Made by a program: the position numbers and the translations under genes
Notes under the pieces: model-generated
Seen by the model: only the letters and a program-made list of their open reading frames with translations
Database searches by the model: none
What the model was told of the DNA's origin: nothing
Shown here: positions 19,976-23,232 of the stretch, piece by piece
How the letters are laid out: every line of letters starts with the position of its first letter
Numbering within the stretch: position 1 is the stretch's first letter
NCBI GenBank assembly: GCA_963664825.1
Contig: OY761614.1
Coordinates: 1,728,001 to 1,792,000 of the forward strand
DNA: 64,000 bases
Source of the DNA: an uncultured Holophaga sp.
Lineage (GTDB): Bacteria; Acidobacteriota; Holophagae; Holophagales; Holophagaceae
Direction: 5' to 3'

Positions 19976-20734
19976 GTGAAGCCCTTCTACCGTCTCATCG
20001 CCCGGTCCCGGATCAAGCTGGAGGCCTCTCTGCCGGGATTGCCCCCCTGGGCCAAGCTCCATGGGAAGGCCTGGGCTTGGCTGGATCCGACCCGTCTGAT
20101 CTGCCTGTCGGGCTTGGTCCGGCTGAGTTCCCGGCCACGGCCCTTCTTCACGGAGCTCCACCTCCTGCTGGATCGGGAGGGGGCCATCACCCTCGGAGAT
20201 GTGGTGGACGCCGCCCAGGAACAGACCTTCGGCTTGCTCATCCTGCTCCTGGCGCTGCCGAGCCTCATCCCCGGCCTGAACATCGGCGCGGCGCCCTTGG
20301 GGGGGCTGTTCCTTTTCTGGATCGGCCTCCAGATGGCCGCAGGCCGGTCCAGTCCCGTGCTTCCCCCTCGGTTTCGCCAGCAGGTCATCCACAAGGGGCG
20401 CGTGAAGGAAGGCGTTGCCCGCCTCGAAGGCTATCTGGATCGCCTGGGTTCCAGGAACCGGGTCCATCGCGCTCTCAACCAGCGCTGGATGGGCGTGGTC
20501 GTGGGCTGGACAGCCCTCCTACTGGCCATCCCGGTTCCCCTGCCTTTCGGCAACATCCTGCCGGCCGCCATCCTGGTGCTCTTGGGCGCGGCCCTAGTGG
20601 AGGAACATCCCGCCTGGGGCTGGCTGGGGGCAGGGGCCGCCCTGGGCAACACACTCTATTTTGCCGCCTCCTTCGATCTCATCGTCCTGGCCTGTGCCAA
20701 GGCCTTGGTCGTTCTGAGACACTGGGCGTCCTGA
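19976..20734 (+). CDS. ExoD-family membrane protein (start uncertain)
   Basis: FGLLILLLALPSLIPG...LLAIPVPLPFGNILPA. Confidence 0.75.
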   Translation: MKPFYRLIARSRIKLEASLPGLPPWAKLHGKAWAWLDPTRLICLSGLVRLSSRPRPFFTELHLLLDREGAITLGDVVDAAQEQTFGLLILLLALPSLIPGLNIGAAPLGGLFLFWIGLQMAAGRSSPVLPPRFRQQVIHKGRVKEGVARLEGYLDRLGSRNRVHRALNQRWMGVVVGWTALLLAIPVPLPFGNILPAAILVLLGAALVEEHPAWGWLGAGAALGNTLYFAASFDLIVLACAKALVVLRHWAS

Positions 20735-21537
20735 TGCGCTTCGATGCCCTCACGCTGTTCCCCGAATTCTTCGACACGGCCCGCCTGGGCGTGACGGGCC
20801 GGGCCTTTCGCGAGTTGGGCCACGAGCTGTATACCCATTCGTACCGGCCTTTCGCGGGGAATGCCTCCGGACATGTGGACGATTCCCCCTTTGGCGGCGG
20901 GCCGGGCATGGTGCTGCGTCCCGACGTGCTGCGGGACACCCTGGCCTCCCTTCCCCAGCGGACCCCTCGCCGAGTCATCCACTTCACGCCCGCCGCGCCG
21001 CCCCTCACCCATGCCAAGGTGCTGGATTTGGCCAAGCTCGACCAGGTGATCCTGGTCTGCACCCGCTACGAAGGCCTGGATCAGCGGGCCGTGGAGCTCC
21101 TGGTGGACGAGGAGTTCAGCATCGGAGAGGCCGTGCTATCCGGGGGTGAACTGCCCGCCCTCTTCCTCATCGATGCGGTCTGCCGCTGGCTGCCGGGTGT
21201 GCTCGGCAATGAGGAGAGCGCCGAGCAGGATAGCTTTGCCGCTGGTTTGTTGGACCATCCCCACTACACGCGGCCCGAAGTCTTCGATGGGCTTTCCGTG
21301 CCCGAGATCCTGCGCAGCGGCAATCACGGCCTCATTGCCCACTGGCGTCTGCGGGAGGCCATGGTCCGCACGAAGCGCCTCCGGCCCGATCTCTGGGCGG
21401 CCTTTCTCCGGGACCGGGTCCATGCCCTCTCCCGGCCCGAGCAGTGGTGCGTCTGGCAGGTGGAACATGCCGAGAGCTGGGGCCAGCCTAAGCCCAAGGG
21501 ATGGAAGGGACTTCCGCCTTCGGCGAATTTGACCTAG
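20734..21537 (+). CDS. trmD: tRNA (guanine37-N1)-methyltransferase
   Basis: LTLFPEFF, VDDSPFGGGPGMV, CTRYEGLDQR, EFSIGEAVLSGGE, LLDHPHYTRP. Confidence 0.96.
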   Translation: MRFDALTLFPEFFDTARLGVTGRAFRELGHELYTHSYRPFAGNASGHVDDSPFGGGPGMVLRPDVLRDTLASLPQRTPRRVIHFTPAAPPLTHAKVLDLAKLDQVILVCTRYEGLDQRAVELLVDEEFSIGEAVLSGGELPALFLIDAVCRWLPGVLGNEESAEQDSFAAGLLDHPHYTRPEVFDGLSVPEILRSGNHGLIAHWRLREAMVRTKRLRPDLWAAFLRDRVHALSRPEQWCVWQVEHAESWGQPKPKGWKGLPPSANLT

Positions 21538-21546
21538 GATCTTTCC

Positions 21547-21609
21547 ATGCACGTTTCCCTTCCCACTCCCCGCATCCAGGCCCAGGCCTGGTGGTGGCTT
21601 GTCCCCTAG
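21547..21609 (+). CDS. Trp attenuator leader peptide 1 (MHVSLPTPRIQAQAWWWLVP)
   Basis: AGGA at 21536-21539, ATG at 21547, three consecutive TGG codons at 21589-21597, TAG; terminator follows. Confidence 0.85.
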   Translation: MHVSLPTPRIQAQAWWWLVP

Positions 21610-21646
21610 AGGCGGGCCCAGGGCGCATTTTTATGCAGAGATTCCC

Positions 21647-21679
21647 AGGACCCGCTTTCGGCGGGTCCTTTTCGTTTTT
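21647..21679 (+). terminator. Attenuator terminator 1
   Basis: AGGACCCGC-tttcg-GCGGGTCCT followed by TTTCGTTTTT. Confidence 0.85.
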
Positions 21680-21693
21680 AAGGAACTGAATCC

Positions 21694-21771
21694 ATGAACC
21701 TTCGCAGCACATTCTCCCTCACCCCCTGGTGGCCCTGGCAGGACCCGCCCGGGTGGATTCCGCGCGCCTGA
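21694..21771 (+). CDS. Trp attenuator leader peptide 2 (MNLRSTFSLTPWWPWQDPPGWIPRA)
   Basis: AAGGA RBS at 21680-21684, ATG at 21694, Trp codons at 21727, 21730, 21736 and 21754, TGA. Confidence 0.85.
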   Translation: MNLRSTFSLTPWWPWQDPPGWIPRA

Positions 21772-21791
21772 ATTTTCAGGCACAGCCCAGG

Positions 21792-21825
21792 AAGCCCACC
21801 CTTCGCGGTGGGCTTTTCTTTTTTT
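21792..21825 (+). terminator. Attenuator terminator 2
   Basis: AAGCCCACC-cttcgc-GGTGGGCTT followed by TTCTTTTTTT, just upstream of the trpB RBS. Confidence 0.88.
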
Positions 21826-21848
21826 CCCCTTTTTTATCAGGAGATCCC

Positions 21849-23093
21849 ATGAACACTTTCACTCACACGGCCTTGGAGCTGGACGTCCTGGACAAGGAGG
21901 GCCGCTTCGGCGAATTCGGAGGCGCCTACGTGCCTCCGGCTCTCGTGCAGCCCCTTCATGAACTGGCCGAGGCCTTCGATGCCGCGGCCCGCAAGGGGGA
22001 CCTGGCCCAGGAACTTTCAAGCCTGCTCCGGGACTATGCCGGGCGTCCCACGCCCCTCACCGAAGTGCCCGCCTATGCCGCGGCCCTGGGAGGGTGCCGG
22101 ATATTCCTCAAGCGGGAGGATCTGCTCCACACGGGCGCCCACAAGCTGAATAACGCCCTGGGCCAGGCCCTCCTGGCCAAGAGTATGGGCAAGGGCCACG
22201 TGGTGGCCGAGACCGGCGCGGGCCAGCATGGGGTGGCCACGGCCACGGCCGCGGCGCGCCTAGGGTTGCGCTGCACCGTATTCATGGGCGCCGTGGACGC
22301 CGCCCGGCAGCGCCTGAATGTCTTTCGCATGAAGATGCTGGGAGCCGACGTGATCGAGGTGCAGGGCGGGAACCGCACCCTGAAGGATGCCGTGGACGAG
22401 GCCATGGGCTACTACGTGGAACACGCTGCCGACACCTTCTACCTGCTGGGCAGCGCCGTGGGGCCCCATCCGTATCCTTCCATCGTGCGGGAGTTCCAGA
22501 AGATCATCAGCCTGGAGAGCCGCGCCCAGATGCTCCAGCAGGTCGGGGCCCTTCCGGAGGCCGTGGTGGCCTGCGTGGGGGGTGGGAGCAATGCCATCGG
22601 CGCCTTCAACGCCTACCTGGGGGACGAGGATGTTCGCCTCGTGGGCATCGAGGCCGGGGGGCGCAGTTTGGACCCAGGCCAGCACGCCGCTCGCTTCGCC
22701 ACGGGGCGCCCCGGGATCCTCCATGGCATGGCGACGGTGATACTCCTGGATGGCCAGGACCAAGTCCAGCCCACCCATAGCATCTCAGCGGGTCTGGACT
22801 ATCCCGGCGTCGGGCCCCAGCATGCTCAGCTCCGGGCCACCGGTCGCGCGGAATACGGATTTGCCACGGATGCGGAGGCGCTCACCGAATTCCACCGCCT
22901 GGCGCGCCTGGAGGGCATCATCCCCGCCCTGGAATCCAGCCATGCCCTGGCGGGGGCTGCCCAGTTGGCCCAGGAGCTGGAGGGTGAAGCCACGATCCTG
23001 GTCAATCTTAGCGGCCGAGGCGACAAGGACGTGGCCCAGGTGTCAGAGATGGAGGGAGAGCCGATGGGAGATCTTAGGGGGCCCTTCTGCTGA
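21849..23093 (+). CDS. trpB: Tryptophan synthase beta subunit (TrpB1-type)
   Basis: GRFGEFGGAYVP, KREDLLHTGAHKLNN (PLP Lys), AETGAGQHG, SISAGLDYPGVGP, NLSGRGDKD; AGGAG RBS before ATG 21849. Confidence 0.97.
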   Translation: MNTFTHTALELDVLDKEGRFGEFGGAYVPPALVQPLHELAEAFDAAARKGDLAQELSSLLRDYAGRPTPLTEVPAYAAALGGCRIFLKREDLLHTGAHKLNNALGQALLAKSMGKGHVVAETGAGQHGVATATAAARLGLRCTVFMGAVDAARQRLNVFRMKMLGADVIEVQGGNRTLKDAVDEAMGYYVEHAADTFYLLGSAVGPHPYPSIVREFQKIISLESRAQMLQQVGALPEAVVACVGGGSNAIGAFNAYLGDEDVRLVGIEAGGRSLDPGQHAARFATGRPGILHGMATVILLDGQDQVQPTHSISAGLDYPGVGPQHAQLRATGRAEYGFATDAEALTEFHRLARLEGIIPALESSHALAGAAQLAQELEGEATILVNLSGRGDKDVAQVSEMEGEPMGDLRGPFC

Positions 23094-23123
23094 AGGCCGG
23101 GTGCGCAATTCTGGAATTCCGCC

Positions 23124-23151
23124 TTGTCTTTCAAGGCTCTTGGGCTAGACT
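23124..23151 (+). promoter_or_regulatory. Putative promoter of rplS
   Basis: TTGTCT-N16-TAGACT; same -10 hexamer and spacing as the rpmB candidate. Confidence 0.55.
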
Positions 23152-23232
23152 GGTCGTTCCCCCCGTGTGGGGCTTTTCGTGTGCTATGTCCCCGGCGCCA
23201 GCCGTGCAGGACCGCTAGCCCCAGAGGAAACC

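Follow-up and report, generated by a model that had tools for sequence, protein, structure and literature searches.

The intergenic region upstream of a stand-alone trpB gene probably carries two independent ribosome-stalling attenuators in series, such that trpB would be transcribed only if ribosomes stall in both units. In the window, which is the whole stretch of 64,000 nucleotides analysed, the stop codon of trmD (20734..21537, plus strand; NCBIfam TIGR00088/NF000648 above cut-off) and the trpB ATG at 21849 are separated by 311 nt holding two successive units of a short ORF and a terminator. The first-pass annotation had described two full Trp leader-peptide attenuators in series here, and this reading is backed at the sequence level by conservation, by covariation in unit 1 and by the ribosome geometry. 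Both ORFs were re-located at the positions it had given and a scan for terminator-like sites recovered both terminators. The parts of a leader-peptide attenuator, namely an ORF with Trp codons, a predicted initiation signal, a terminator with a rival antiterminator and a suitable ribosome spacing, could all be assigned, and the mutual exclusion of terminator and antiterminator is indicated with covariation in unit 1 and from conservation and folding only in unit 2. The Rfam Trp_leader model RF00513 touches each unit separately with 17.7 and 17.5 bits, both far below its gathering score of 41.

Both units are present in seven of the nine genomes of the genus, which is every genus genome having the lone trpB. 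By gene content and group sizes, the lineage looks like Holophagaceae (Acidobacteriota). Orthologs of this gene (81-85% identity) were found in six of the eight other genus genomes, all six carrying both units, and in none of the 124 remaining family genomes searched. When 133 family genomes were searched by blastn and with a model of unit 1, full-length strong matches to the Trp tandem occurred only in the seven genus genomes. Further away, 25 metagenome and 27 genome-collection TrpB loci reached just 51-62% identity by best segment, and none of the 28 top-ranking TrpB loci from the phylum beyond the genus had a Trp ORF with a terminator within 520 nt. Alignment of the relatives revealed Trp codons conserved in both units and covarying stems in unit 1, as the tandem reading had anticipated.

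Leader ORF 1 (21547..21609, plus strand) encodes 20 aa with Trp codons 15-17 at 21589-21597. Its ATG, W15 and W16 are invariant in all seven genomes and W17 is kept in five, being Arg in the other two. In two genomes the stop is shifted four codons downstream, into the antiterminator strand, which fits the attenuation mechanism. The hexamer TAGGAT (21535..21540, plus strand), overlapping the trmD stop codon in the genome studied (G000), had been taken for a ribosome binding site; it reads better as a -10 box, whereas in unit 2 an SD-like site is indeed present. It occurs as TAGGAT, TACGAT or TAGCAT (TAnnAT) exactly 6 nt before the ATG in 7/7 genomes, and two of these three variants are not SD-like. 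Across the genome, 79 of 2657 coding-like ORFs have TAnnnT exactly 6 nt before their first ATG, a clear peak compared with the 1-27 cases found at each of 19 other offsets. Because the hexamer is a -10-like box at this distance and matches the genome-wide leaderless signal, ORF 1 is likely leaderless with its own promoter and a predicted transcript start at 21547; no consensus -35 box was found upstream of it. For the genome as a whole, the leaderless-gene signal marks at least 79 genes and also lacks a -35 consensus.

The hexamer is kept in G007 and G008, where the trmD stop lies farther upstream or a gene of ~0.9 kb intervenes, and the earlier suggestion that the leader relies on trmD read-through is thus unsupported. 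Read-through may still add transcripts to the leader, because no terminator-like site was detected by the terminator scan between trmD and the leader. Only in G001, G007 and G008 is trmD directly followed by a gene with lower GC3 (L088:5790-6600, L089, L157).

Inside ORF 1, a small 6-bp hairpin (21576..21591, plus strand; 100% of alignment cells paired, one pair changed on both sides) is possibly a pause hairpin. The 5' strand of antiterminator 1 (21611..21623, plus strand) pairs with 21644-21656 (97% of cells paired, -20.1 kcal/mol, three pairs changed on both sides), and this helix contains the previously noted pairing of GGCGGG (21611-21616) with CCCGCT (21651-21656). Terminator 1 (21647..21679, plus strand) consists of a stem at 21647-21669 and a U tract, with -18.1 kcal/mol and likewise three pairs changed on both sides. 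In G005, the antiterminator strand carries a G-to-A change that is accompanied by C-to-T in the left arm and G-to-A in the right arm of terminator 1, so that both rival helices are kept; two further unit 1 pairs have changed jointly in G003, again with both helices retained. In the covariation statistics, whose seven genomes are kin and not independent, terminator 1 together with the 5' hairpin has four pairs changed on both sides, which none of 500 shuffles equalled, and it stands above all shuffles on three measures. The antiterminator 1 structure, which as tested included a poorly kept inner hairpin, is overall weakly above the shuffles (24-42 of 500 on four measures, 306 on one).

Unit 2 begins with the SD-like site (21680..21686, plus strand), whose GGA(A/G) is kept in 7/7 genomes, and leader ORF 2 (21694..21771, plus strand) encodes 25 aa with the sensing Trp codons 12, 13 and 15. 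Neither the stop nor any of the four TGG codons varies among the seven genomes; in G003 the 5' part of the ORF is replaced and the start lies one codon over in frame, with the SD retained. W21 is likely no sensing codon, since it falls inside the antiterminator 2 strand. The 5' strand of antiterminator 2 (21751..21761, plus strand) pairs with 21790-21801 (70/70 cells paired, -27.7 kcal/mol), including the pairing of GGGTGG (21751-21756) with CCACCC (21796-21801) that had been pointed out earlier. Within antiterminator 2, a hairpin over the ORF 2 stop codon (21764..21782, plus strand) has 86% of cells paired and one two-sided change. Terminator 2 (21790..21825, plus strand) comprises a stem at 21791-21816 and a U tract (-17.8 kcal/mol, 98.6% of cells paired). 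Among the seven genomes no antiterminator 2 pair has changed on both sides, and the almost invariant helices of unit 2 thus give no covariation signal for or against.

The geometry agrees between the two units. Past the last sensing Trp codon, the 5' strand begins after 13-16 nt in antiterminator 1 and after 12 nt in antiterminator 2, each in 7/7 genomes. Nascent RNA was folded with a ribosome mask reaching 10 nt past the A-site codon (a 10-nt footprint being assumed); the antiterminator pair probability was 0.97-1.00 at the sensing Trp codons of both units, and under the same assumption the antiterminator strands are covered one or two codons beyond the last of these codons. With the nascent RNA cut at the terminator loop, the antiterminators win in 7/7 genomes for both units. 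On full-length RNA, terminator 1 is the minimum-energy fold at equilibrium even with the ribosome masked at Trp; the switch therefore needs co-transcriptional folding. Without a ribosome, the probability of antiterminator 2 ranges over 0.00-1.00, and antiterminator 1 is favoured at 0.51-1.00 even though the C-rich 5' part pairs with the antiterminator strand in partial folds, as a protector helix (1:2) promoting termination of untranslated RNA would do; hence untranslated transcripts would pass unit 1.

In the proposed mechanism, transcription would start at the AUG of the leaderless ORF 1. Under ample charged tRNA-Trp the ribosome would pass the Trp codons and cover 21611-21623, and terminator 1 would form, whereas a stall at W15-W17 would leave 21611-21623 free to capture the left arm of terminator 1. 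A second ribosome would load at the SD behind the first U tract; its stalling at W12, W13 or W15 would free 21751-21761 for antiterminator 2, and two codons further this strand would be covered. The read-through probabilities would then multiply, from which we infer multiplied repression, that is a lower off-state, and a sharper, steeper response than with one attenuator, in a genome without a TrpR match.

Other explanations of the two units were weighed against this serial reading. Both attenuators may be real and serve different transcripts without multiplying: unit 1 would act on the local leaderless RNA and unit 2 on RNA reading through from trmD, on which ORF 1, having no SD, is perhaps untranslated, leaving unit 2 with its SD to catch these transcripts. 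Such a division of labour is consistent with the lack of a terminator-like site from trmD up to the leader, with the preference for antiterminator 1 when no ribosome is present and with an SD found only in unit 2. Local-promoter transcripts must still traverse both units, however, the his leader discussed below is doubled too despite a clear promoter (TTGAC invariant in 13/13 aligned), and the leader is unchanged with another gene upstream in G007 and G008; we regard this explanation as unlikely. Quite unlikely, in our judgement, is that one of the units responds to a signal different from uncharged tRNA-Trp, for instance to free Trp or indole acting via the nascent peptide as in TnaC, or to a general slowing of ribosomes at Pro-rich codons; the pair would then be a two-signal gate like mgtCBR. 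Peptide 2 is indeed strongly conserved in its C-terminal half, which has several Pro, and peptide 1 keeps QAQA, but the invariant codons coincide with paired RNA, third positions included, the Asp and Pro following the Trp cluster vary in G003, G005, G007 and G008, and the geometry already agrees with plain stalling at Trp codons.

It is highly improbable that hairpin 1 does no more than terminate trmD transcription, with an inter-unit promoter driving unit 2 as a conventional single attenuator. The stability of terminator 1 (-18.1 kcal/mol) and its position 110 nt after trmD in G000 would suit that explanation, but unit 1 has an invariant ATG, conserved Trp codons and three-way covariation, and in four insert-free relatives rplS follows trmD by ~120 nt with no such hairpin seen by eye. 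Moreover, the second ATG follows the U tract by only ~14 nt, in which the SD is located and no TAnnnT occurs at the leaderless offset. Two serial, independently acting attenuators hence remain the preferred reading.

The coincidence of parts was also compared with the chance background. Two terminator-like sites in 2.5 kb are by themselves not above chance (shuffles 1.7 +/- 1.5), but their joint occurrence with the Trp-rich ORFs is. The genome has 843 terminator-like hairpins, 13 of them with a WW-containing short ORF upstream, and 41 hairpin pairs within 260 nt; from these counts ~0.007 pairs with WW before both hairpins were calculated to be expected. In two of the 41 close pairs an ORF rich in the same amino acid precedes both hairpins and the matching gene lies behind, these genes being trpB and hisG.

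The leader DNA is no assembly error. A contig from run X5, which is possibly the assembly source, spans the leader with zero differences, and a contig from run X6 is identical over 21538-21950. Upstream of 21538 the X6 contig continues, from a GATC-GATC junction, with 24 letters of unrelated sequence, which probably arose by ligation during library preparation. Strain X8, from another study, differs at 12 places in 21530-21850. The start codons, the Trp codons, the -10 hexamer, the antiterminator strands and the terminator stems are all spared; in the hairpin over the ORF 2 stop codon, one difference disrupts the innermost pair. The contigs of the two RNA-labelled runs X1 and X2 do not reach the leader.

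The two units may stem from an old duplication or from two separate captures. A 10-mer shared by the units, at 21646 and 21739 as the first-pass annotation had listed, was considered as a sign of duplication and rejected: it is intact in unit 2 in one of seven genomes, lies in non-equivalent places and has 44 copies in the genome. With the unit 1 model, unit 2 reaches 13.4 bits (the next chance match 12.7), and with the unit 2 model, unit 1 reaches 5.2 bits; since the units fail to detect each other significantly, recent duplication of one unit is unsupported.

The gene behind the leader is a stand-alone trpB of the TrpB1 type (21849..23093, plus strand, 414 aa), which scores 562.6 bits with TIGR00263 (cut-off 392) and, at 161 bits, falls below the cut-off of 519 of the TrpB2 model TIGR01415. 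K99, E121, GGGSN, SAGLDY and NLSGRG, which we take to be the PLP lysine and the catalytic motifs of TrpB, are present. It is the only TrpB in G000 (single contig, 96.6% complete). A family-model search gave no match to the TrpA, chorismate-binding or TrpR families in G000, and with the operon proteins of G007 as queries there was no match for trpE, trpD, trpF or trpA, TrpC and TrpG matching G000 proteins only at about 30%. Because trpA, trpE, trpD and trpF are undetectable in this genome, the lone TrpB likely serves indole salvage, a role suggested by TrpB chemistry. Five of the seven carriers have no TrpA match, and G005 and G007 have operon copies in addition. In a quick tree of 56 rows the lone TrpBs group in a separate clade with a long stem, away from the operon TrpB of the genus, and no donor was found. 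G000, which is without the rest of the Trp pathway, encodes at L031:676-2214 (minus strand) a protein in which a TrpC-like domain is joined to a long repeat tail rich in Lys, Ala and Val, similar to histone-like proteins.

G000 also has a gene of the tryptophanase/tyrosine phenol-lyase family (C1:262179-263546, minus strand; L282), which passes the subfamily model and neither specific model; similar matches exist in all four relatives that were searched. If this lyase degrades Trp, it can be speculated that tight repression of trpB would prevent a futile cycle. Downstream, a predicted -10 box of rplS (23146..23151, plus strand; TAGACT, TAAACT or TACACT before a similar rplS leader) is alike in genomes with and without the trpB insert. 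Given this predicted box, rplS would escape the attenuators, and it appears to be independent of them with its own promoter. The conserved rplS leader itself (window positions 23095-23232) combines the -10-like hexamer with hairpins and is a possible autoregulatory element.

A second double leader stands before the his operon of G000, outside the window (C1:2222393-2222705, minus strand; L177:2107-2419). Behind a TTGAC promoter come two successive units, each made up of a His-rich ORF and a terminator. This arrangement precedes hisG in 16 genomes of three genera (other loci L166, L168-L172, L174, L176, L179, L184 and L243-L247): in 8/8 genus genomes with a HisG match, in 2/2 of genus g2 and in six of the 12 of genus g9, where six were examined and the other six have a differently scoring HisG form. 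An alignment of 13 of the 16 leaders shows no variation in TTGAC, in the second ATG, in two His codons of each unit or in the G/C arms. The predicted antiterminators are clear in unit 2 (-17 to -27 kcal/mol) and weaker in unit 1; the U tract of the first hairpin is short in g2 and g9, and in G134 the early stop of ORF 2 is absent. In five genomes of family f3 the His unit is single. A His-leader pattern search allowing two mismatches performed no better than its control, and only its matches beside hisG were used. The last codons of the second his ORF are mostly a series of Pro codons, and this C-rich stretch of RNA might base-pair with the G-rich strand of the antiterminator.

Single leaders prevail elsewhere. 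Among 30 trpE leaders of the family (L286-L315), 29 have one Trp ORF and one terminator and none is doubled; several of these ORFs are apparently leaderless or start at GTG or TTG. Some of the trpE attenuators share the motifs QAWWW or WWP with the trpB leader, but the covariance models of the two trpB units miss them (six loci), and hence this is to be taken as resemblance only. In G005 and G007 a single attenuator on trpE and the double one on the lone trpB occur in the same cell. Eleven other regions (leu/ilv, thr, his, trp) in six relatives gave single candidates, none doubled, before ilvB (G020), thrA (G016, G020) and trpE (G005). In family f2 (L008, L009, L010, L011, L013) a single W-x-W-R-S leader ORF with a strong SD and a TTGACA promoter lies 100-150 nt before a trpB of a separate clade, which is stand-alone in G025; no obvious intrinsic terminator was seen there by eye, so attenuation at the Rho or translation level is possible.

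In their usual description, classical attenuators have one leader peptide and one terminator. We lean towards the view that serial stalling attenuation by the same amino acid recurs in this family, with separate origins at trpB and his, and that as an AND gate of two ribosomes it squares the starvation response and replaces a repressor. If the units are serial, stacking of ribosome-based sensors would raise dynamic range and steepness, as in T-boxes and riboswitches; in a product model with an assumed basal read-through of 0.1-0.3 per unit, induction would be 10- to 90-fold compared with 3- to 10-fold. G005 and G007 offer a natural controlled comparison in which the same signal meets a single trpE and a double trpB attenuator. 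The 300-nt cassettes, small enough for reporters, could act as steep Trp or His sensors.

In comparison with known systems, the parts are textbook and the stacking and its his recurrence appear undescribed; the literature searched, mostly without subscription journals, gave no description of a same-amino-acid tandem leader-peptide attenuator. In the available text of a genome-wide attenuator survey, a tandem terminator is mentioned only for the rimP leader (PMC2965389), and according to the accessible part of PMC13434334, trpL1 and trpL2 of P. aeruginosa stand before different operons. In tandem T-boxes and riboswitches, amino-acid genes are preceded by two consecutive sensors that respond to one signal (PMC9413887 and PMC12452182, as far as available). 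There, the RNA senses tRNA or metabolite directly, without a translating ribosome, whereas the system described here is ribosome-based. The polycysteine ORFs of mycobacteria are reportedly attenuator ORFs located at the transcription start behind a -10 motif. Leaderless leader peptides of this kind, with the attenuator ORF at the transcription start behind a -10 motif, are described for Deinococcus deserti in PMC4007540, the available text of which does not mention doubled units. E. coli trpL (RF00513) resembles each unit in its short ORF, adjacent Trp codons and rival antiterminator and intrinsic terminator, the mechanism being that outlined in the available parts of PMC3641672 and PMC4007540; here, in contrast, there are two complete units, a likely leaderless first ORF, a lone trpB as target and no TrpR match. 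The nearest system is the Salmonella mgtCBR leader, in which two translated short ORFs, mgtM and mgtP, share one leader with rival stem-loops, called a "singular example" in the accessible text of PMC3641672. According to the same text, mgtM and mgtP sense different signals (ATP and proline) and act additively, and their stem-loops are unlike intrinsic terminators (PMC3641672), whereas both trpB leader units have codons for the same amino acid and each has its own intrinsic terminator.
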